From: Octopus vulgaris
Taxonomy: Eukaryota
Assembly (NCBI GenBank): GCA_951406725.2
Contig: OX597814.1
Span: 167,834,001 to 167,898,000, forward strand
Direction of reading: 5' to 3'
DNA: 64,000 bases
The notes under the pieces are model-generated. The model saw only the letters and a program-made list of their open reading frames with translations, ran no database searches and was not told where the DNA came from. This document shows positions 5,112 to 60,923 of this stretch, piece after piece. Positions within the stretch are counted from its first letter, which is position 1. Each line of letters begins with the position of its first letter. A program made the translations under genes and the position numbers.

Positions 5112-5237
5112 TCTGTTGTCTGTCCTAGCAGATCACATGAATGCTGAAATTGTCTCAGGAACTGTCAATTCAAAACAAGATGCTATGGATTACATCACTT
5201 GGACATATTTTTTCCGTCGACTTGTAATGAATCCCAG
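5112..5237 (+). CDS. ASCC3: Internal exon of activating signal cointegrator 1 complex subunit 3 (Ski2-like helicase, second cassette winged-helix region)
   Basis: ttttatttcag| acceptor and AG|gtaagt donor, 126 nt, phase 2-2. Translates (S)[41 protein letters not shown](S), close to the remembered human ASCC3 segment [43 protein letters not shown]. Confidence 0.93.
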
Positions 5238-9566: not shown

Positions 9567-12194
9567 CGTGTGTATATTTATATATATATATTTTGAAAAA
9601 GAAATGATTCTATGATTTTTCTGTTCTCACTAGCTAGCATTGTATACTGTACCAAGCTAGTCGTTAGGCTTTTCAACACTAGGCCGTGCTTTAAAGTTTA
9701 CAATTTTTCAGCAACTCCTCGGCTGATTTTGCCAAGGAGTTCATTAGGAACTTGCTACCGACTTTTCTTAATATCTGGTTATAAAGAACTTAAATTATCT
9801 CAAAATTCCTTAGACGTAACATCTCTAAAGGGCAGATAAAAGAAATAGTAGAGAGTTATTGCCCTTAGACAAAGCAGTCGGTTGCCGAATGAACTAAATT
9901 GGATGTAATTTTTATCGAGATTTAGAAATTTAATATTCCAATTATATACTATTTTTCTTAAAATATTTGAATTATTTAAAATATTAAACTAGACTCTTAA
10001 TTGCATTTAAAAAGATATATGTATGTTTACATTAGTACACCTTTCTGATTAGTAATTATTGGCACTGCAAGCATGTATCCATTAGATTCTTTGTTATTCA
10101 TGTTAATATATAACATAGATCAAAATTATGACTCGACAAGCTTTTATCTAGAATTCCTGAAATTTGAATTGAAAACCAGAAACTAATTTGGGTTAATCTG
10201 AGTATTCAAGAAATTAGTACGGCCATTATATATTCAAATAAATCATATACATTAAAACATTTGATATTACTTTAAACACTCAAATTGAAGTTTTAACTTT
10301 ATTCAATTTGGACTTTTCTGCTCCACCCCAAATTAGTTTCTAACGTTGATTTCATCCAAGCCTACTTTGTAGCTTTATACTAGTTCCATCCCAATAGTCT
10401 GTATGATATTCATTCTTTAAATTATAGTGTTTAAAAAAAAAAAAAAAAGAATTCAGTTTCAGTACATTCCTTTACCTACCTGGGTAATACTGCCACCTGT
10501 TTTGCAACATGTGTAAACTGGTATTAAGTACCGAACTGAAGTTTGCTTTCTATATTCCTTCATTTGCATCATATAATAACATTCACATCAACTAGATGTG
10601 AATGTTATGAAAAGCTTCCCTTCTATTCTTTAAGTTACAAAATAAACATAACAAAAGTAGAAATATTTGGAGAATTTTATTTATAAAAGTGCAAAAATAG
10701 GTATTTTTAAATATGTTCCAGTAATTGATATAAACTAAAAAATAAATAAACTTTACAATTGACAAAAGAAATTCAACTGATTTTTTGAAGAGATCCCCAA
10801 ATATTTGAATTTTAAACTTATAATAGTGTGACACATGAAGAAGAAAAATGAAGATATTAAATATTGCCACTATCCCATCAAATTGTTTTTTTACAAAAAA
10901 AAAAAAAAAAAAAAAAAAAAATTCTACATAATATTCAGTTTCTTATTAAGTTGTAATCTGAATGCAAAATGAAATTCATAAATTAGTAGAAAAGTTTGTA
11001 AGAACAGAAAGTTAGAAAAGGCTAGTAATTGCCACTAGCCTTTACCAGTCTTGAAAAGTGTACATTACTTAATAAGGGATGGGGAAATGCAAATAAAAAG
11101 GGATATGTCCTAGCTGATAAGCCAAAAACAGTTGATCAGAGCAGCAGAACAGTTGATCAAAGTACTCGTCAATCCCTTAAGCCAAACTCAAGCAGATGAT
11201 GATATGAAGTGGAATGCCACTTATGAAGAAATATCACAGATACACAACTGTTAATGGATTTGGGATTGCAGGTTTAGAGGACAGAAATTTTGACAAATAA
11301 ATCTAATTAAGACAAAGAAACGACAATAAAGAGGATGACAAATGTCCAGATACTTGAATACTGTTAGTATTTTGTTTCAAGTTTTCTGTGAATAAAAATG
11401 ACTAGGTTCACTCACAAAATTCCACCGCTAATGATAGCTTTTGAAAGAAAGAAAGAAAGAAAGAAAATGGGGGGAGAAAAAAAAGGGGAGAGTTTCAATA
11501 TACATGTTCTATTATATACAAGAAGAATGTCTTCTCTATCTCCCACCCGAACCCACAGAAACGATATACACAATTTTGGAAAAGGAAAAAAAAGAAAAAC
11601 AGTATAAATACAAACACAATACAAAATATAAAATGAATTAGTATAAACATCAAAGAGCGAGAATAAATATAGTTGTATGAAGACATAGTTGTTGAATATT
11701 CCTCATGCTTGACAGTCCTCATCACAACCATGTTGCTTCTTTCATACAGATCTACTGTCATGGAATTTTTGTCATAGCCAACAACTGATATAAATCCTTG
11801 GCTGTCATAGTCAACATCCTTCTGTATTAAAAATCTGTTTAGTGAAAGTTATCTTCACCTTCACACCAGCTTTTTGTCCAGGATGTTTTTTACCACTTAA
11901 CACCAACTCACTTCCTTCAGGTCTTTAACTGCCTGATTCTTTTGTCAGATCAATCATAGTTGTTTCATACCTACATGGCATGTTAACTATCATTTCGTAT
12001 CAGCTGAAATTTTTTTTCATTCATTCATTCATCCTCAATTGCTTCAGTTTTTCACCAGCAAATTTCCTTTGAAATCAGTTCATTTTTTCCATGTTATTTT
12101 ACATGTCCAACAGATCCAAGCATTTATTACAGTTTGTTATTTCAAAGTTCATTACTTGGCTGTATAAATAGCCTATGTGCCATATTTTCCAGTC

Positions 12195-12305
12195 TTAAAT
12201 TTCTATATTTGATAAATTGCTAAGAGTTTGATTATGGCTGGTATTCTTTCGATTCTGATTTTGTATAATGAAATTGCTGTAGACTTTTTGTCGTTTCTTT
12301 TTAAT
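12195..12305 (-). CDS. Nested gene coding exon 6: cytoplasmic tail and stop
   Basis: Poly-T tract ttattttcag|, phase 0. IKKKRQKVYSNFIIQNQNRKNTSHNQTLSNLSNIEI* begins with a basic stop-transfer cluster directly after the TM. AATAAA on the minus strand at 12128-12123. Confidence 0.78.
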   Translation of the reverse strand: MKKKRQKVYSNFIIQNQNRKNTSHNQTLSNLSNIEI

Positions 12306-12639
12306 CTGAAAATAAAAAAAAAATAGAAAAAACATGAACTGGCAGGAAAGAAACACACCATTGATATACACACACACAAATACTTTTACAGTACTAGTTT
12401 TGTTTCCTTCTTAAACAAATCCATCTCAGAGTGGTGTGGTAGACAGTTTCTTATATAAACATCTACTTTTCCATGCTTACATGGATTGTAGAAAATATAC
12501 ATTGGTTTATGATTACACCCCTCGTGAAAATGGCCCAGCTCAATATGTAGGTAAAGTGTAGTTAGAAATTATGGGTCATAATGCAGCGGACATGTGAAGA
12601 CGACAAAGAAATTAAACTAGGATGCTCCACTGGATGTGC

Positions 12640-12870
12640 AATGTCAGTATGCATTTACAACACAAATGTAGTGTTCAAGAAAGAAGACTGCACTACTGTA
12701 CTTGTACTAGTATGGTTAAGAGATGAGCTTGGATGAGGACACCTGTATAAAGAAATGATGATCAGTAAATGTGGGTGGAACGTGAAAAAGAGGGAGAGCA
12801 GGAAGACATGGGACAAAGGAGTGAAGACTGATCTCAAAATATTGAGCCTCACAGAAAATGCTTGACAATT
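12640..12870 (+). mobile_element. RTE LINE 3' fragment inside the last intron of the nested gene
   Basis: Decayed DEDTCIKK..GGT*KRG..RKTWDKGVKTDLKILSLTE, typical of an RTE C-terminus. Confidence 0.55.
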
Positions 12871-13635
12871 TGCTGTCCATTTTATTGAAAGTGAAGCCCT
12901 AAAAATCATTGTCTATACACTCACTGGGCCCTACTCTCAGTTTGTCCCCATCAAGCCTTCCCCACCTTCCTAATTCTCATCTTCCTAATACCCATCCATC
13001 CATAGCACCGTCCAACAGCTGTAACCGGGTGAGTAGAAAGAAGCCACACATGATTCATCTCTACTTTGTACTACCAGTTACCTCCCTTCTTCCTGGAATC
13101 AGTTCCTTTTACAATCGATCCATCATTCTCAATATCATCTCTTCCTTCATTCCAAACAAGACTATTATGTGTGTGCTGTGTGAACAAAAGTGGATTGATA
13201 GAAACTGCATGGAAACTCCTTGTATATATATAATTCGAAAAGGTCTGACTTTGTCACATTAATTCTACTTGAAAACATACATCAAGTACATATGGCTGTG
13301 GTAGTTCATTTATTCAAACAAATATTGATTTCAAATTTTGGCACAAGGCCAGTAATCTCAGGGGAGCAGTTAAGTTGATTACATCGACCCCAATGCTCAA
13401 CTGGTACTTTATCAACCCCGAAGGGATGAAAGGCAAAGTTAACCTTGGTGGAATTTTAACTCGGAATGCAAAAGACAGACAAAATACGACTAAGCATTTT
13501 GCCTGGTGTGCTGACAATTCTGCCAGCTTAAAAACAACTAAAATATTAATGCTTAAAAATTTTGACCAAGATCCATTTATTTACACACACACACACACAC
13601 ACATGCAACTATTACTGATTGAAAAGTATACTTAC

Positions 13636-13715
13636 TTGTATTTTGAATACCAAGAATATAAGGAATGTAATTAAAATAAAGAGAAGTGTGCCTATAACAC
13701 CAGCTGTTGCAGCAA
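13636..13715 (-). CDS. Nested gene coding exon 5: transmembrane helix
   Basis: ttctttccaacag| ... CAA|gtaagt, 80 nt, phase 1-0. (V)AATAGVIGTLLFILITFLIFLVFKIQ. Confidence 0.85.
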
Positions 13716-13881
13716 CTGTTGGAAAGAAAAAGAAAATATAATTAACCCACTGAATTTGATTTCTTTTAATATTATTAATTGCTATTCTACATAAACATAT
13801 TCTGGATATTGATCTTAGTGTTCGAATTGAAAAAAATTTTTTTTTTATTGAAAATTTCAAAAAAGAAGAATGGATATTTAC

Positions 13882-13983
13882 CAAAAATAGCTGAATTGTT
13901 TACTTGCGGCTTTGGATCACTTTGATAGTGTTGTTGATAGTTTTTAACAGTTGGACTTTCTGTTACTTTGAGTGGGGGGATAG
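13882..13983 (-). CDS. Nested gene coding exon 4: Pro/Ser/Thr/Gln-rich stalk
   Basis: ttcaaatag| ... G|gtaaat, 102 nt, phase 1-1, open frame (A)IPPLKVTESPTVKNYQQHYQSDPKPQVNNSAIF. Confidence 0.78.
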
Positions 13984-14119
13984 CTATTTGAAATAGAAAG
14001 ATATATACAGCTTAATCTTCCAAACAATTTTAAAAGCCAATGAAAAGTGAAAGTATAGAATATTGTATCGCGCAATTTTTTTTTTTATATATATATATTA
14101 TAAGAACTTAAAAGCTTAC

Positions 14120-14467
14120 CTTCATAATAAAGCCAAAGTCCTTTGCGTTTGCCTCTGCTTGCCACTTTCAGTGTTAAATTTAATTCGTTTTTAGACGTGG
14201 GAAAACTTTTTTCATTTACACTTCGGTTACATATTGTTATGGTGTTAATTCCCAAATTCAGATCCAGATAATCTGTACAGTTTTTATTTCGTTCACCTTT
14301 TAGATCCATATCAAGTATATATAATTGAATTTTCCTATGAGGTTCCACTCTAATGTTCAATTGGCACGTGATCGGACCTTGAACATTGTTAGGGTAGCGA
14401 TCACTAGAAATGTATCCACTTGGATCAGTGAGCTGTTTGGTGGTGCATATCTTTCTGACTTCAGATC
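14120..14467 (-). CDS. Nested gene coding exon 3: CUB domain
   Basis: cctcttaaag| ... G|gtaagc, 348 nt, phase 1-1. ICTTKQLTDPSGYISSDRYPNNVQGPITCQLNIRVEPHRKIQLYILDMDL..CTDYLDL..IC..TSKNELNLTL..KGLWLYYE matches the CUB consensus (GxIxSxxYP, CxxxI, CxDYL, GFxxxY). Confidence 0.9.
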
Positions 14468-15091
14468 CTTTAAGAGGAAAAAAATAAGATAAAGTTTTTA
14501 AAAAATAATTACAGTAAACATAATTAAATTACTGTAAATAAATCATTGTTTATATATCCGTCACAAAGAACAAGACGTTTAATGAAGCACGATTAAAATT
14601 AACACTAATCTACATAGAACAGTTCTCTGCTTCGGTAGGATAAATATTCAATAATTATTTCATTTTTGTCATAAAGGATCTAATTTGCCTTAATCTGCTA
14701 ATGCTAAATTGCTTTCACTCTTATCAGTCCGAGAAATAAATAAATTTTATATATATATATATATAAACAAAACATCCCTATTGTTTTCACGTATCCAGAG
14801 AAGAGACAATGCTAGATTTTATCTCCTTTCCATTATCAGAAAGAAAGAAATGAATCTGTCTCGAATCTGAAGTAACCACGTTCTTATATTTATTATTTAC
14901 CATAAATATATACCAACATGCGAGGATTCGAAAACTACTACGATAGTTAGAATCAATTTAAGTTAGTAGCAATTTAGTGGACAGCTCGTTTTAATTTAAT
15001 AGCCATCGCAAGCATTGTATCATCGATAATAAATTTAACGAAAGTGATAGCTTATGTGATAGGATCAGCATAAAGTATTTATTTTACTCAC

Positions 15092-15367
15092 GGTTTACAC
15101 ATTGGTATTCCACTTGAAAATAATTGAAGCTACAGTTCCCTTTTCTTTGACCAGTTTTACTCGTGGGTATGTTAACAAGACAGAACTCCCGACCCATGCA
15201 AGGGTAGTTTTGTTCGTCCTCCTGTATACAGTCATTCGCTTCGTAGCTACAGGATCCCCTGCTGCTGTGTCCATAAAAACTCCTTAAGATGCGAACCATG
15301 TAATTGCTTGGACAAGTGGCGTTCAAAGAGTCCTTTTTGTCTTTAAAACAAGCGCTTACTTTCAAAC
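15092..15367 (-). CDS. Nested gene coding exon 2: SUEL/galactose-rhamnose-binding lectin-like domain
   Basis: ttttctag| ... C|gtgagt, 276 nt, phase 1-1. ACFKD..ATCPSNYMVRILRSFYGH..C..C..CMGREFC..C..YFQVEYQCV has 8 Cys in SUEL-type spacing. Confidence 0.88.
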
Positions 15368-15668
15368 CTAGAAAATATAATATTTGGTTTTATTTTAGTT
15401 GTGAAAGAGACGGCATTGTTAGTTTGGGGAAGATTGAAATTAAATATTTGATTATAAACAGAAGTTAAAAATATGTTTAGATTATTATATCAGTATAAGC
15501 TTAATGCAAAGCATTGTATATATATATTTATAGATAAATAAAAATAGTAAAAATATGAAATGCAGCTTTAATAAGAATTTTATAAGAAATAATTTTTCCT
15601 TTATGCGTGTGCGTGCGTGCGTGTTAAAGTTTTAAAAAATATATTTGCAATGCATATAAACAACTCAC

Positions 15669-15744
15669 CTGCTACAAGATGACAGATATCAAAATAAAGA
15701 AACACTGCAAACAGCACGATTGCCCAGCTAAATAATCTTGCCAT
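15669..15744 (-). CDS. Nested antisense gene, coding exon 1: start codon and signal peptide
   Basis: ATG at 15744 (gcaatcATGG). MARLFSWAIVLFAVFLYFDICHLVA then G|gtgagt donor. Upstream polypyrimidine tract with ttccag/cag acceptor at ~15757-15762. Confidence 0.85.
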
Positions 15745-15972
15745 GATTGCTAATTTCTGCTGGAAAGGAAAAATAAAACAGAAAAAAGGGTAAAATATTT
15801 TTTTTTAAATAATAACTCAATCCATTATTGAGACACATCAGTCTCAATAATAGAGAAACAACAAGTACAAAGGGAAACTGCAAGTACAAAGAAAGAGAGG
15901 CTGGTGTAATAATAATAATAGTTAGCTACGTCTCACAGCTGGACTGACTAGAGTTAGTACTATAGAACGTAC

Positions 15973-16030
15973 CTGGAACCGCTGTTCATATATAATACAC
16001 CTGCTGAAAATTATATGTATCCTTTATATA
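15973..16030 (-). promoter_or_regulatory. Candidate TATA box and short non-coding first exon of the nested gene
   Basis: Minus strand reads TATATAAAGG (16030-16021), then TCAG ~25 nt downstream, then a CCAG|gtacgt donor at 15973/15972. The ATG exon has its own acceptor, so an upstream UTR exon is implied. Confidence 0.4.
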
Positions 16031-19000
16031 TCGGCTGAATTTCCCTCCAAAATATAGAAAGTCTACAAATATGAAACAAAATTCTCTAAGACTGCGACTT
16101 GCACAGAGTCAGGTTTCTGGAGCGTCGGCTTCTGGGGACAAAGAGCAGGAAGTGTACCATCTGTGAGTGCTTAAGGGGGTTTAGAATATGTATCTTCGTA
16201 GAAAGCAGTTCATTGTGTTCAAATGTAAACAAAGTATTTTCAATGACTAATTACTCATCAAAGACACCAAGTTATTTACACTGACGACCGTCACTCTCTC
16301 CGCTAGCAGGTGCCATCATACTATAGAAGGCGGGCTATTTCTGTTGATATCCCTCCTTCCTCTACCTCACAGTCTTCTCGTGCAGCTTGAGTTGATAGTG
16401 TGACCCGACATATGTTCGAATTTGTTTTTGTTTTGTTTGTTACTTTCTTTCTGTTCAGACTGAACCATTACTACTAAAAGGGGATTTCTTATGCTCCCAT
16501 CCCTCAACTAAGGCTTTCGAGAACTGTGAATGCTGAAATTCCAACATTTCCATTGTTGTAGAGAAAAGACAAAAATACATAAATGAAAAAAGCAAAGCAT
16601 TGAATATCATTACTGTATGAAAACGCATTTATATTTACATAGCATTAAAATATTTTTTTTAATTAAATTATTTGTAAAAATTATTTTAGTCGCATGAACC
16701 TTGGATGTAATCACCAAATTTTGGAAAAGTGAGATAAGATAAATGTCTAAATCGGTTTGATAACAGAAAATTAGCAATATATTACAAATTGTTATTATTC
16801 GTTAGCAACAGAGGGATTTTTTCAAAATCTACCTCGCTACGATTGCCTACCTACCCGCCAGTTGAAAAATGGAATAGCTCTAGAAATTGTTCCTCCACCT
16901 GTCAGGCTGATTACTACGTATCATTGTTATGGAAATGAACGGTTTATACAGGTATTGTGTCGTCTCGCGGCGGTTGAATGATTAGTGAGTCTGTGGGGTC
17001 AGGAAGCAGTCAATGCAGACGCCTGAAGTCGACAGCCTGCCACACTTTAGGTTGAAGTGGTGTGGATAGGGGGTAGCAGAAGAAGAAAAAAAAGAAAACC
17101 TTTTTCTTTATCGGGCAACACCTGTCTTTCTAGTTGACAAACAATGAGCCTATCCCGACCTCTAAGCGAGCAGGCGCGTGTCTGGCATTACTTATCAACG
17201 ACGAAGAAAGAAAGAAAAGCGATCTTGTCTTTTTCATAAGTAAAGCCACTTGAGAGAGAAAACAAAAATGGAAGTGGAAGGGAGGGATTAGCGACCCTGG
17301 CGGGAAGTTAAGAGAATATTAAGACAGTGGCGTACGCCTGGCTGTAAGCCGCCACGTGCCAAGCTTACGACCTACTAGAGCAAAATTTTTCTCTAATCTT
17401 TCAATTTCGGTCGTTTCAAATGTCACCAAAGGCATCATTGGGATTCAACTATTTGCGAGACTGACAAAATGTTGAAATTGTATGCAAACACGTGTATATA
17501 TTTTACGCTGCAAAAATGTTTATAATCATCACTAGCTAATATTTTATTCACATAGTTTTATACTATTTGGTTCGATGAAATTGGTAGTTTTTTCCTAGAT
17601 AGAATATATGTAACGCCAGGAACAAAGAAGCGTCTTCCATATAATGAGAGCAACAGACGGTTTCACATACATAACCACACACACACACACACTTTTATCT
17701 TAAGTCAAATGATTGCGGCCTTGCTGGGGCACCGTCTTGAAGAATTTTTAGTACAATTAAATCGACCCCAACATTTTTTTAAAACCTGGTACTTATTCTA
17801 TCGGTCTCTTATACACACATATCCAAATGCTTGAGACTGTGCATTTGTTATATCTTTTATCTCGGGTATTGGATTGCGGCCATCCTGGGGCACCACTTCC
17901 AAGGGTTTTAGTCGCATAAATCAACCCCAATGCTTCTTTGTCTTTTTCAGTCTGGTAATTATTCTACTGGTATCTTTTGCCGAACTGCTAAGTCACTGGC
18001 TCTTATACAAACCAACAATGGTTGTCAAACGGTGAAGGGTGGGGGGGGCAAACATAGACACAAAGACACACACACACACACATATTGGTTAGTCAGTGTT
18101 AAGACTTCATATCTATAGGGCTTAAATAGGAAAAGTGGACTTCAAATATATCACACATGGAATACTTACAAGTTACCTTGCCACCCATCTAATTGCCTTG
18201 TCAGTTGCTGTTGAACAAAGAAAACAGCCTTGAAATACATAGCACTTGTTGACTTCACAAGTGTATAAATGACCAGGGATGGATAACTGAAACTCTATGG
18301 TATCACAAAGAAATAACTGCCCCTTCATCACTTTACAGAATGTACTGGGTACATCCTGTGAAGTGATTAGCATTAGGCAGGGCACCCAGCCCTAGAAAAC
18401 CGTACTACAACAGACAATTGGACCCTCGACTAGCTCCTATCAAACCGTCCAACCCATGCCTGCATGAAAAACGGACATTAAATGATGATGATGATAGATA
18501 TCATGTAACTGGATGAACATTGACTCTCCTGAGTTCATCTGCCTTTTGATAGGTCTTATTCTTCATTCCACATAATTGTCCAGAAGCCACCCTACTCACC
18601 AAGCTGGCTTGGTGATGTTACTGGCTGAGTCATAGATGGCCTGACCATGCAACAGGTTGTACTGGGGTGGAGGGTTTACATGTTACTAGTAACCCTCAAG
18701 AGTGACTTCACACACACACATCTTGTGTGTGCAGTTACATATATGACTATTACTGTTGAGTTTAGCTCCACACATATCATCATCCAGTCTGCCTCCAGTA
18801 AAGTAGTTTGGATACTACTGTACTTAATATTACTGGTTATGATACACAGAGCAAATGTATGTGTGTGTGTATGTATGTGTATAATATATATACATACACA
18901 CATACATATGTTAGTCTATATACACATATATATACATATATATATATTTATCAGCCATTTCACTATGTTGAACTGTTAATCTCTACACTTTTTTTCTCTC

Positions 19001-25681: not shown

Positions 25682-25972
25682 ACATACACTCATACATACA
25701 TACATACATACATACATACATACATACACACACACACATACATACACACACACATACATACATACACACATACATACATACATATACATACATACATACA
25801 TATACATACATACATACACACACACACATACACACACACACAGTATTGAAGCTTGAGAACAATCAGATACATTTGCAACACATCTGTTGAAAATATTATT
25901 GTTCACACACATACATATACATATATACATACAGACAGACAGACAGATAGACACACACACACACACACACAC
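25682..25972. repeat. Compound (CATA)n/(CA)n microsatellite (similar TA/TG/CA tracts at ~19334-19478, 37578-37702, 45640-45708, 47189-47500)
   Basis: Direct inspection. Confidence 0.95.
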
Positions 25973-26029
25973 ATGATCCAGCATGGCCACAACCTCAAGG
26001 CTGAAACATATAAAAGAATAACAGAATAT

Positions 26030-26390
26030 AAATGTGTGCAAAGTACAAGAAATATTAATGCAGTATATGGGGATTGGACAATAAGCGTAAGGCAGTGTCA
26101 ATGGTGGTTCCAGAAATCCCGAGCCATAAACTACAGCATAGAAGACGAGCCTCATCCGGAAAGATCTGTAGAACTCGACAAGGACATCCTGAAAACCCTG
26201 GTGGAACAAAATATCATCGTAACTGTTGAGGAACTAGCAGAGAAGCTTGGATTTGGTCATTCAACCATTCATTGACACCTGTGTGCTATCGGAAAAGTCA
26301 GCAAATTGGGTCAATGGGTTCATCATGAACTTTCCGAGTCTAATTGCATGCAGAGAGTGAATGTATGCTTTTCTTTGCTGTCATATCTCA
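26030..26390 (+). pseudogene. Mariner transposase N-terminal (HTH) fragment
   Basis: STRNINAVYGDWTISVRQCQWWFQK..EDEPHPERS..TVEELAEKLGFGHSTIH*HL..GKVSKLGQWVHHEL (degenerate WVPHEL). Internal stop, no DDD domain. Confidence 0.88.
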
Positions 26391-50569: not shown

Positions 50570-51480
50570 ATCTCCTCTGCCCACAGTCCCTGAGGGATTG
50601 TGAAGGTAGAGTCCTCAGACCCCTCCTCTACAAGGTCCTATCAGAAGCAACCTTCATTTAACTTTACAGCTTGATTTCCAAATATGACTGACTGAGACTA
50701 TGGAAATTATCCAACCATCTCATTTTTGGTCTACCCCTAGGCCGCTTGCTCTTTGGCTCAGTTTGAAGAATTTGTCTTGCAATTCTTACCTGCAACCTTC
50801 TAATTATACTTCCATAGTACCAGAGCTATGACATCTCAATGTGGAGAAGAAATAGCTCAACTTGGAGAGACTCCTTGATTTTCAAGCTACACACCCTGTC
50901 AATTAACATTACTTCAGAGGTCCTTCAGAGAACACCATTTCAGTCACTTGCAATTGTGACCATACTCTTTTAGCCATTATCCAACATTCAAGACCATAGG
51001 TGAGGGTGGGTATGAAAACGGAATTGAAGAGAGCAAGTTTGGCTTTTTTACCAACCTCTCTCCTTCTAAGGATTGAATGCTGGAGCTGGTGCATAATTGT
51101 GCTAACACCTGAAATTCTAGCATACAGTACTAACACCTGTAATTCTAGCATCCAGTATCAACACCTGTAATTCTGGCATCCAGTGCTAACACCTGTAACT
51201 CTAGCATCCAATTCAGCCGTCTGTTTCACATCACTTGTGAGAAAGACTCCCAAGATACTTAATCTTCTCCTTTGTCTCAGTGATGTTCCACTAATATGCA
51301 TGGTGTACTGGGAAGACCTTCTTGAGAGAACCAGTGTTTCAGTTTTCACTATGCTAATTCTAATCTCTGCCTTGCAGCACCCAGCAATGAACCCACTCAG
51401 TGCATGCTGCAGATCACCTTCTGATGAATCAAGTAGCACCATGTTGTCTGCAAATATCAGCCAACTAATCCTAATTCTAC
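50570..51480 (-). mobile_element. 5'-truncated RTE-clade (Expander/Rex3-like) LINE remnant
   Basis: LIFADNMVLLDSSEGDLQ, KAKLALFNSVFIPTLTYGLECW and KRPRGRPKMRWLD, with frameshifts. Confidence 0.85.
51100..51210. repeat. ~27-29-bp minisatellite x4 inside the RTE remnant
   Basis: ctaacacctgtaattctagcatccagt repeated. Confidence 0.85.
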
Positions 51481-51940
51481 AACTATGTAGAAATAGAAAT
51501 ACAGAATTTTCTCCAATAATGTCTTGTAGATTTCAGATTTGTACTTGCGTGGTTAATGATTTGATCTAAGACTGTCTGTTGAAACTGAGATTGTCTTATT
51601 CATTTGTCTTGATGTTTTATAGAATGTCACATTGTTTTTCACTGATTACTTATAACAATAGCAAATCACATTTGTTTGTTTCTGGTTTTGTTCTTTTCTT
51701 GAAGATCCTAAGTGCTTTTCTTCTTTTGTTCTTGTTGATTATCCCTAGGCCAGCCCTAATTGAGTGGACATTATAATCAGAGGTTTTATGGCCTTGACCA
51801 CCTACTTCTGCTTTGGGGAATAGTGTATATAGGACTACATTATTCAATGTAACCTTCTTTATTTTTAAGATGGTAGGTTGAGATTTCGCTGCTATTTTTA
51901 GTGACCATGTGGGGCTTCCTTCATTATATAGGATGTTTTA

Positions 51941-58795: not shown

Positions 58796-58875
<80 letters not shown>

Positions 58876-60923
58876 CCCTCTGGTTTTTGACTTTCTTGAA
58901 GAAATGTTAATTGTTATGAAAATATTGGATAACTACATGTACATAAATGTCACAGTCATAAATATTTTGTCCTGTAAAACTAAGCTCCATAATTAGATTG
59001 AGGATATTTTTCAGCAACTTGGAATACAGATAAAAACTGACTAGTTTCACAATTGTTATGACTCATCAGGACTTGCCACTCCATCCCAAATGCAGAGCTA
59101 TGTATTAAAATGCAAGCAAGACTGTGCTGGTCACAGCTTAATTACTTAATGTTACAAGGTTAATAGTCTAACATTAATTCTTGGATTGGGCAGCATACAA
59201 GGGGGTGCTGAAAAGTTCCTGACTTTAAGGGTATCATGAAAGGCCTGGTTGGAGGCCCAACCTTCCCAGTTCTTTTACTGGGCTTAGAAAAACTGAAGGA
59301 CCACTGCAATAAGTGTGTAAATCTGAAAGGGGAATGTGTTGAATAAAATCATAATTAACTGATCTTCCTGTATTGTCTTTTACTCAAAGCCAGGAACTTT
59401 TCACTGCCTCCACATATAGTGTCCTCAAGCAAGGCATTTTTTCTCTTTTTATGCTGCTCCAGTCTACTCACAGCCAAGTTCTGGTGTAGCCTTCTCTCCC
59501 TCCAGATATTACATCCTGGATACTACACTGGGGAAGTGTGGGAGAACCAAGAAGGTCTGTACCTGCTTGCAAGCACTTAAAAACAATTACGGCATGGTAC
59601 ATGCTACCAAGTCATTCTCAGTTCTGGGTGATGACCATAGATTAAACCAATACAGAGGAGGTTTTGAATAAATATTTATTTATGAGATGCCATATCTATG
59701 TATTTAATGTTACTGTGAAATTAAGTTCAATGGTTACACTAAAGGGAATACTTTTTCAGCTACTTGGAATGAGGACCAAACCAACTATTTTCACCATCAT
59801 TTTGGCTCTTCGATATTTGCTTACTCTCAAGGTGCTAAGTAACTAAAAGTTACTTATTAAATGTAAGCAAAGATTGTCAGACACAACTAAGTAACTTTTA
59901 GTTACTTAGCACCTTGAGAGTAAGCAAATATCGAAGAGCCAAAATGATGGTGAAAATAGTTGGTTTGGTCCTCATTCCAAGTAGCTGAAAAAGTATTCCC
60001 TTTAGTGTAACCATTGAACTTAATTTCACAGTAACATTAAATACATAGATATGGCATCTCATAAATAAATATTTATTCAAAACCTCCTCTGTATTGGTTT
60101 AATCTATGGTCATCACCCAGAACTGAGAATGACTTGGTAGCATGTACCATGCCGTAATTGTTTTTAAGTGCTTGCAAGCAGGTACAGACCTTCTTGGTTC
60201 TCCCACACTTCCCCAGTGTAGTATCCAGGATGTAATATCTGGAGGGAGAGAAGGCTACACCAGAACTTGGCTGTGAGTAGACTGGAGCAGCATAAAAAGA
60301 GAAAAAATGCCTTGCTTGAGGACACTATATGTGGAGGCAGTGAAAAGTTCCTGGCTTTGAGTAAAAGAAAATACAGGAAGATCAGTTAATTATGATTTTA
60401 TTCAACACATTCCCCTTTCAGATTTACACACTTATTGCAGTGGTCCTTCAGTTTTTCTAAGCCCAGTAAAAGAACTGGGAAGGTTGGGCCTCCAACCAGG
60501 CCTTTCATGATACCCTTAAAGTCAGGAACTTTTCAGCACCCCCTTGTATGCTGCCCAATCCAAGAATTAATGTTAGACTATTAACCTTGTAACATTAAGT
60601 AATTAAGCTGTGACCAGCACAGTCTTGCTTGCATTTTAATACATAGCTCTGCATTTGGGATGGAGTGGCAAATCCTGATGAGTCATAACAATTGTGAAAC
60701 TAGTCAGTTTTTATCTGTATTCTAAGTTGCTGAAAAATATCCTCAATCTAATTATGGAGCTTAGTTTTACAGGACAAAATATTTATGACTGTGACATTTA
60801 TGTACATGTAGTTATCCAATATTTTCATAACAATTAACATTTCTTCAAGAAAGTCAAAAACCAGAGGGGGGGGGCAGAGAGAGAGAGAGATAACAAAAAA
60901 AAAGGATTCTGAATTTAAAATTT
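58767..60923. repeat. Long near-perfect inverted duplication (arms 58767-59856 and 59888-60923, 31-nt spacer)
   Basis: Arms are reverse complements over ~1 kb. Identical ORFs at 59664-59846(+) and 59898-60080(-). I saw three substitutions plus differences in and around the (CT)n tract. Confidence 0.97.

Follow-up and report, generated by a model that had tools for sequence, protein, structure and literature searches.

A 64,000-nucleotide stretch of the Octopus vulgaris genome (contig OX597814.1, positions 167,834,001 to 167,898,000), referred to here as the window and used for all coordinates below, carries a minus-strand gene for a 330-residue protein in which one SUEL-type lectin-fold domain and one CUB domain precede a single predicted membrane helix. 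The gene is real and spliced, and chance is not an issue. A preliminary description of this DNA presented the gene as hidden, which it is not, because its joined translation is identical, letter for letter, to a protein already in RefSeq (XP_029640253.1, Octopus sinensis LOC115215197, isoform X1, 330 amino acids). That entry is annotated merely as uncharacterised, and UniRef calls the relatives "CUB domain-containing protein" with the SUEL domain unmentioned. What is apparently new is the family of single-pass, co-receptor-like proteins to which this annotated yet uncharacterised gene belongs. The SUEL-CUB family is conserved across several spiralian phyla, and its domain pairing escapes annotation pipelines, as the SUEL domain does not reach the threshold set by Pfam.

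With the CUB exon as query, the proteins recovered were O. sinensis LOC115215197, O. bimaculoides LOC106884421 and one from Argonauta. The identity with the O. sinensis protein points to DNA of that species or of a very close relative. The preliminary description recognised no named family with this combination of domains, and that judgement holds, as no match to a characterised protein was found. We found no solved structure or paper for proteins with the order SUEL-CUB-transmembrane helix (SUEL-CUB-TM) in a search that left subscription journals and supplements outside its reach; the gene may be listed in the supplements of cephalopod atlases. Queries by six identifiers of genes or proteins likewise led to no papers, and the available portions of PMC3390340, PMC6626399, PMC9382459 and PMC11673550 describe no SUEL-CUB-TM protein. 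The family is thus apparently undescribed and unnamed.

Gene structure and transcript evidence

Six minus-strand exons join in frame to give 993 nt, encoding 330 amino acids plus a stop codon, and the five introns between them (301, 624, 136, 166 and 1330 nt) all have GT-AG ends; the exon coordinates and splice sites are those originally proposed. Exon 1 (15669-15759) has 15 nt of untranslated region (UTR) and then, from the ATG at 15744, a coding part of 76 nt (15744-15669) with a predicted signal peptide at residues 1-25. Exon 2 (15092-15367, 276 nt) encodes the entire SUEL domain, of rhamnose-binding lectin (RBL) fold with eight cysteines, at residues 26-117, and exon 3 (14120-14467, 348 nt) encodes the entire CUB domain at residues 118-233. 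Each of these two domains occupies one symmetric phase 1-1 exon, which is the pattern expected of shuffled modules. A Pro/Thr-rich stalk, predicted to be disordered, comes from exon 4 (13882-13983, 102 nt). Exon 5 (13636-13715, 80 nt) codes for the predicted transmembrane helix, in which a small-xxx-Gly face is conserved and Gly276 is invariant. The coding part of exon 6 (12195-12305, 111 nt) supplies a basic juxtamembrane stretch, a 36-residue cytoplasmic end and the stop codon. On the same strand, a non-coding 5' UTR exon covers at least 15973-16435 in contigs X11, X13 and X1, with a GT donor at 15972 and an AG acceptor at 15761-15760. The contigs extend the 3' UTR over at least 10931-12194; its end is not fixed, since they stop at a genomic homopolymer run.

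Splicing was read from the contigs of four public runs belonging to four studies, for which the type, RNA, was guessed by the tool; four further runs of the same species, with almost no matching words, were excluded as evidence. Exactly the predicted introns are missing from these contigs, with CT..AC ends. Introns 1, 3, 4 and 5 are skipped in all four runs and intron 2 in two of the four in the joint table, being spanned also by one contig of a third run, so that each of the five predicted junctions is seen in RNA-type contigs. Contig X11, of 2768 nt, holds all six exons together with the 5' UTR exon. Positions 9600-10187 are uncovered in all four runs, and the contigs therefore fit RNA rather than DNA. 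As the contigs themselves are strandless, assignment of the strand relies on the reading frame and on the ends of the introns.

Some variation at both ends of the transcript was also seen. One contig continues unspliced from the 5' exon up to 17431 (15973-17431), and the X1 protein is common to four RefSeq accessions, which suggests alternative starts or 5' UTRs. Read-through into intron 5 (13612-13635, minus strand), evident from the open reading frame (ORF) at 13612-13899 and from RefSeq, yields the annotated 301-residue isoform X2, which stops seven residues past exon 5 and has no cytoplasmic tail. Intron 5 is covered in parts by low-depth contigs, and the tail-less isoform could act as a decoy form. 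A high-copy repeat in this intron (13320-13530) is matched by thousands of contigs that belong to other parts of the transcriptome, and a second such repeat lies near 17550-18100.

Domain architecture and fold

Signal peptide, SUEL domain, CUB domain, stalk, helix and short basic tail together cover all 330 residues, and hydropathy shows two hydrophobic segments, one N-terminal and the other at about residues 268-291, which supports both the architecture first described and its single-pass, co-receptor-like anatomy. Pfam matches to phage-holin and YncO families fall under their cut-offs and were set aside as membrane-helix noise. The expected Pfam domains were recovered in part: CUB (PF00431) passes with 41.5 bits against a cut-off of 21.4 (E=1.9e-10), while SUEL_Lectin (PF02140) reaches 23.2 bits (E=9e-5), under its cut-off of 31.4. 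Two relatives, P0015 and P0058, do exceed the PF02140 cut-off. Scores below it explain why databases label the relatives only as CUB proteins.

The assignment of the first domain is strengthened by sequence and fold comparison. The closest sequence matches of the SUEL exon are the rhamnose-binding lectins SUL-I and CSL3 (E=0.001; profile E=6e-12). A structure predicted from exon 2 alone had a mean predicted local distance difference test score (pLDDT) of 89.1, and its top five matches among 48,161 chains were all RBL or latrophilin lectin domains (Z 7.3-7.7, root-mean-square deviation [rmsd] 3.3-3.5 over 83-86 residues). Foldseek agreed, all of its top 12 listed rows being RBL domains, the best at E 1.2e-3 and so short of E 0.001. 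For the whole protein the predicted structure had a pLDDT of 75.9, and its CUB region matched CUB domains with Z up to 16.0 (rmsd 1.8 over 110 residues). As a lead only, the first ESM Atlas match was a rotifer-dominated "SUEL-type lectin" cluster at 0.92, and the matches of an ectodomain search all lay below 0.9.

The best PDB sequence match of the protein is cubilin, and matches to CUB co-receptors are limited to the CUB domain. NETO2 is among the weak sequence and fold matches, and one Lingula paralogue has been automatically named NETO-like. Together with the CUB domain, the short tail and the high conservation of the membrane helix, this would fit a role as auxiliary subunit to a neurotransmitter receptor or ion channel, such as NETO, SOL-1 and LEV-10 play. 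The octopus protein, however, has one CUB and no LDLa domain, and NETO2 scores under many other CUB proteins, so we consider such a role quite improbable.

Distribution and phylogeny of the family

The O. bimaculoides protein was compared with 1.84 billion representative sequences, giving 304 matches at E<=0.001, of which the best 150 were used. Among 181 proteins (isoforms included), 75 contain SUEL and CUB alike, and the SUEL-CUB-TM plan is found in 45. We looked up 20 chosen clusters and added two scallops separately; this is a sample rather than a census of phyla. Fifteen of the clusters were named, all of them spiralian (five molluscan, three from Lingula, three from Owenia, one nemertean, one bryozoan and two from bdelloid rotifers), and five were unnamed. 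Bivalves, limpets, a chiton, the brachiopod Lingula, the annelid Owenia and the nemertean Tubulanus have likely orthologues, and paralogues and tandem SUEL-CUB repeats are seen in a bryozoan and in rotifers. The restriction to molluscs or cephalopods supposed in the preliminary description can therefore be dropped.

In the SUEL-CUB tree the octopus gene falls in a cephalopod clade (100/99), which in turn lies within an 18-row group that also contains other molluscs, Lingula, Owenia and Tubulanus. Support for this core group is moderate, at 90/91 in the tree of 39 rows and 85/82 when five long rows are removed. A wider quick tree contained 80 modules after exclusion of 16 isoforms or near-duplicates. 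One Owenia paralogue and one Lingula paralogue pair in the tree (100/99), and trees forcing two Owenia genes or three Lingula genes together were rejected by the approximately unbiased test (p-AU 0.001 and 0.0002, for groups named post hoc). Judging from these trees, the paralogues are old.

Owenia P0014, P0068 and P0080 have near-consecutive accessions, apparently on one contig, and the same holds for two pairs among Lingula P0011, P0021 and P0066. These accessions, rather than coordinates, suggest that the paralogues of both organisms form old gene clusters. In rotifer proteins the SUEL-CUB unit is repeated up to seven times: P0009, P0175, P0008, P0016 and P0018, of 1200-2300 residues, have three to seven tandem units and a membrane helix, and the named ones among them come from the bdelloid Didymodactylos. 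A fibronectin type II domain is present in P0009 as well. In two other, unnamed relatives, P0125 and P0149, an extra cysteine-rich module, sushi-like by eye, lies between the CUB domain and the membrane helix.

One might read the consecutive paralogues of Owenia and Lingula and the repeated units of rotifers as parts of a small recognition code, with the octopus protein a homophilic or trans-acting molecule of adhesion and self-recognition. We regard this as very improbable, given that the gene is single-copy in the octopus window (where the best other hidden Markov model match has E ~1) and that the protein is well conserved across octopods, unlike hypervariable recognition systems. Faster evolution in this species was ruled out, as 15 lineage-specific changes were counted against 15 between the two Octopus species. 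The exon 4 stalk is about 30 residues shorter than in O. bimaculoides and Argonauta, by an in-frame loss within the exon.

A broader history of the family can be offered only tentatively, as something possible that we would not yet expect to be right. The SUEL-CUB pair may be an ancient spiralian recognition module that had diversified into at least three single-pass paralogues, arranged in clusters, by the time annelids, brachiopods and molluscs diverged, reached seven units in tandem in bdelloid rotifers, has no counterpart in flies, nematodes or vertebrates, and had its tail rewired in cephalopods. If this were true, it would amount to a superphylum-wide system of cell signalling or recognition beyond the reach of model-organism genetics.

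Sugar and calcium sites

The eight cysteines of the RBL fold (C32, 44, 65, 72, 82, 88, 104 and 115) are kept in the octopus SUEL domain, and each is present in 19-20 of the 20 core modules. The residues that bind sugar have not been kept. Papers are cited here and below for the portions available. In mouse latrophilin-1, Glu42, which follows the first cysteine, and Lys120 are required for binding of rhamnose or galactose, and E42D, E42Q or K120R abolishes binding nearly or wholly (PMC2430599). Alignment to SUL-I places Phe33 at the Glu site of the octopus domain and Asn107 at the Lys site. Neither residue occurs in any of the 20 core modules (two are gapped at the Glu site), and among all 80 modules one has the Glu (with five that could not be called), five have the Lys and none has both. 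The word "lectin", as used in the preliminary description, is thus not supported in its functional sense, and binding of rhamnose or galactose by this domain appears unlikely from its sequence.

A true glycan receptor, serving immunity or gametes through a rebuilt, non-canonical sugar site, would account for the retained fold and cysteines, and the loop corresponding to the RBL sugar pocket does have family-invariant residues at Asn91, Pro93 and Gly98. CUB domains, moreover, bind carbohydrates in spermadhesins (PMC10850435). Such a receptor is nevertheless distinctly unlikely: every core member is without the two required residues, at which even conservative changes nearly abolish binding, no lineage-specific speed-up is seen between the two Octopus species, and the window has a single copy of the gene.

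In the CUB domain, the calcium-binding signature Tyr-Glu-Asp-Asp (PMC10850435) is also incomplete. Tyr142 and Asp183 are kept, Lys174 stands at the Glu site with a Glu two residues on, and Ala220 stands at the second Asp. All three acids of the signature are present, by eye, in about 4 of the 20 core rows.

Membrane helix, cytoplasmic tail and probable function

Over ten diverse rows, mean identity is highest in the N-terminal half of the membrane helix (0.60), followed by the SUEL domain (0.43), the CUB domain (0.39), the tail (0.21) and the stalk (0.17), and in the same rows Gly276, Leu282 and Leu289 of the helix are invariant. All 18 core rows have small-xxx-Gly, and 14 have strict GxxxG, the exceptions being the four coleoids. 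Motifs of both kinds mediate helix pairing. The tail is 39 residues long. Seven of 18 core tails contain NPxY/F, where shuffling predicts 0.26, as do 6 of 21 paralogue tails, where it predicts 0.8. The four coleoid tails end in a hydrophobic-X-hydrophobic triplet, which we take to resemble a class II PDZ ligand.

We would give an even chance to the proposal, made by analogy, that the protein is an accessory co-receptor, in which the SUEL-CUB pair would bind a protein ligand rather than a sugar, the helix would pair with a signalling partner and the tail would govern trafficking. The SUEL-fold domain, with a second loop whose family-specific conserved motif replaces the sugar pocket, and the CUB domain would together bind a secreted or cell-surface protein. 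Since the short tail is without a catalytic domain, pairing with a signalling partner, or with a second copy of the protein, is likely left to the conserved small-xxx-Gly face of the helix, much as the membrane helix of EVA-1 joins it to UNC-40. In bivalves, limpets and several paralogues, the NPxY/F tail would draw the complex into clathrin pits; as the cephalopod proteins have no NPxY/F, the octopus protein probably retains the complex on the surface or relies on a different adaptor. Gene structure, splicing, folds, family membership and the loss of the sugar residues are established, but ligand binding, partner, dimerisation and trafficking are all inferred.

Protein binding by RBL domains altered in this way has precedent. 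The C. elegans LAT-1 and EVA-1 domains are named among those carrying substitutions of the sugar residues (PMC2430599). LAT-1 binds TOL-1 through its lectin domain (bioRxiv 10.1101/2023.05.04.539414), and EVA-1, which undergoes endocytosis, uses its lectin-like domains to bind MADD-4 and its membrane helix to bind UNC-40 (PMC4133157). If the family consisted of co-receptors of the EVA-1 kind, it would offer molluscs and annelids a definite candidate for signalling in guidance or in cell recognition.

Several observations weigh against the accessory co-receptor proposal. The mechanism is modelled on EVA-1, which is no sequence relative beyond the shared domain type, and the SUEL assignment itself has a sub-threshold Pfam score and a Z of 7.7 that is middling by the tool's own note. 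The invariant loop residues described above could form a non-canonical glycan site. With regard to the helix, small-xxx-Gly is common, being present in 15 of 21 paralogues too, and the narrow alphabet of membrane helices raises identity by itself. As for the tail, the seven core rows with NPxY/F are all bivalves and limpets, which are related and so non-independent, and NPxY/F is absent from all four coleoid tails. YxxPhi was ruled out as a family feature, occurring in 8 of 18 core tails (6.4 expected) and 9 of 21 paralogue tails (10.7 expected).

The tail also bears on whether the protein acts instead on its own, as an endocytic receptor for cargo or as a receptor anchor in the way that amnionless is for cubilin, capturing a soluble protein and internalising it by means of NPxY/F. 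The enrichment of this motif in core tails and, independently, in paralogues is what one would expect, the CUB domain is the ligand module of cubilin, and in amnionless an FxNPxF in a short tail drives clathrin uptake (PMC6283879). The four coleoid proteins have no such motif, however, nor do the core members from Lingula, Owenia and Tubulanus, and the octopus CUB is without the second Asp of the calcium signature, so for this gene we think a cargo receptor unlikely.

Genomic context

The preliminary description also placed the gene antisense within an intron of ASCC3. An ASCC3 exon is indeed present upstream on the opposite strand (5112-5237, plus strand), the sole one found in the window. 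It encodes the winged-helix part of the second helicase cassette (Pfam PF23445), is closer to ASCC3 (E=2.5e-25) than to Brr2 (E=5e-17) and is spliced at both sides in all four runs, and three of the four contigs that contain it extend about 1.27-1.29 kb past it. The downstream exon lies outside the window, and to that extent the nesting is inferred. Both flanking ASCC3 exons, as taken from the RNA contigs, are missing from the window; the first bases of the following exon occur nowhere in the 64 kb at up to three mismatches, and motif searches and a simple exon finder run over the window gave no ASCC3 exon besides 5112-5237. An arrangement in which ASCC3 ends before the SUEL-CUB gene, tail to tail, was ruled out on the same grounds, both neighbouring exons being outside the window. 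Since the next exon is absent, the intron opened by the donor of this exon (5238-64000, plus strand) would be longer than 58.7 kb, with its far end beyond the window, and would contain the SUEL-CUB gene, provided that the assembly is colinear.

Nested genes in long introns are common, and the position inside ASCC3 is probably incidental. Nothing in our analysis points to a functional link between the two genes, and a literature search on nesting in ASCC3 returned unrelated papers only.

The remainder of the window was surveyed as well. No paralogue of the SUEL-CUB gene was found in it, and Rfam gave no matches. The inferred ASCC3 intron contains a near-perfect inverted repeat (58854-59856 and 59888-60890) with arms of 1003 nt that are 99% complementary and lie 31 nt apart, which is either a fold-back element or an assembly artefact. 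A remnant of a mariner (Mos1-type) transposase helix-turn-helix is present at 25850-26272 on the plus strand (Pfam HTH_48, E=1.8e-6), and at 51158-51532 on the minus strand an ORF resembles, by eye, a fragment of a long interspersed nuclear element (LINE) reverse transcriptase, with no Pfam match at E<=0.01.

Comparison with known systems

The rhamnose-binding lectins SUL-I (5h4s) and CSL3 (2zx0) share the fold of the SUEL domain and are the best sequence matches of its exon. They are soluble tandem lectins that keep the motifs YGR, DPC and KYL (as seen for SUL-I), whereas all three are altered in the octopus protein.

Neuropilins, NETO1/2, DCBLD1/2 and cubilin-amnionless resemble it as CUB-bearing surface co-receptors or auxiliary subunits. 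The domain sets of the neuropilin, NETO and DCBLD proteins include two or more CUBs, FA58C, MAM, LDLa and LCCL; the octopus protein has no second CUB and none of these other domains, and they in turn have no SUEL. Kremen1/2, with the order Kringle-WSC-CUB-TM, is similar in having a small disulfide-rich N-terminal module, one CUB (matched at Z 13.4) and one helix, and its role is that of a co-receptor. Kringle and WSC take the place of SUEL there, however, and neither is found in the octopus protein (Pfam E<=1), whose N-terminal domain folds as an RBL in the predicted structure. In ESM Atlas, Kremen appeared as a weak lead at 0.78-0.80.

The lectin domain of latrophilin (ADGRL) has the same RBL fold and eight-cysteine pattern, accounts for the top fold matches (PDB 8djg, 6vhh, 6ska, 2jx9 and 8suf) and binds proteins (teneurin, TOL-1). 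Latrophilins differ in being seven-pass adhesion G protein-coupled receptors with a GAIN domain, and mouse latrophilin-1 keeps Glu42 and Lys120, while the octopus protein has one predicted helix. EVA-1/EVA1C also differs, having two lectin-like domains and no CUB, against one SUEL, one CUB and no FAM176 found in the octopus protein, which is not a member of that family. Proteins of the EVA-1/EVA1C family bind Slit or MADD-4 and partner with Robo or DCC. Being single-pass, short-tailed and equipped with SUEL-type domains in which the sugar residues are substituted, EVA-1 is nonetheless the best available model of how the octopus protein might work (PMC4133157).

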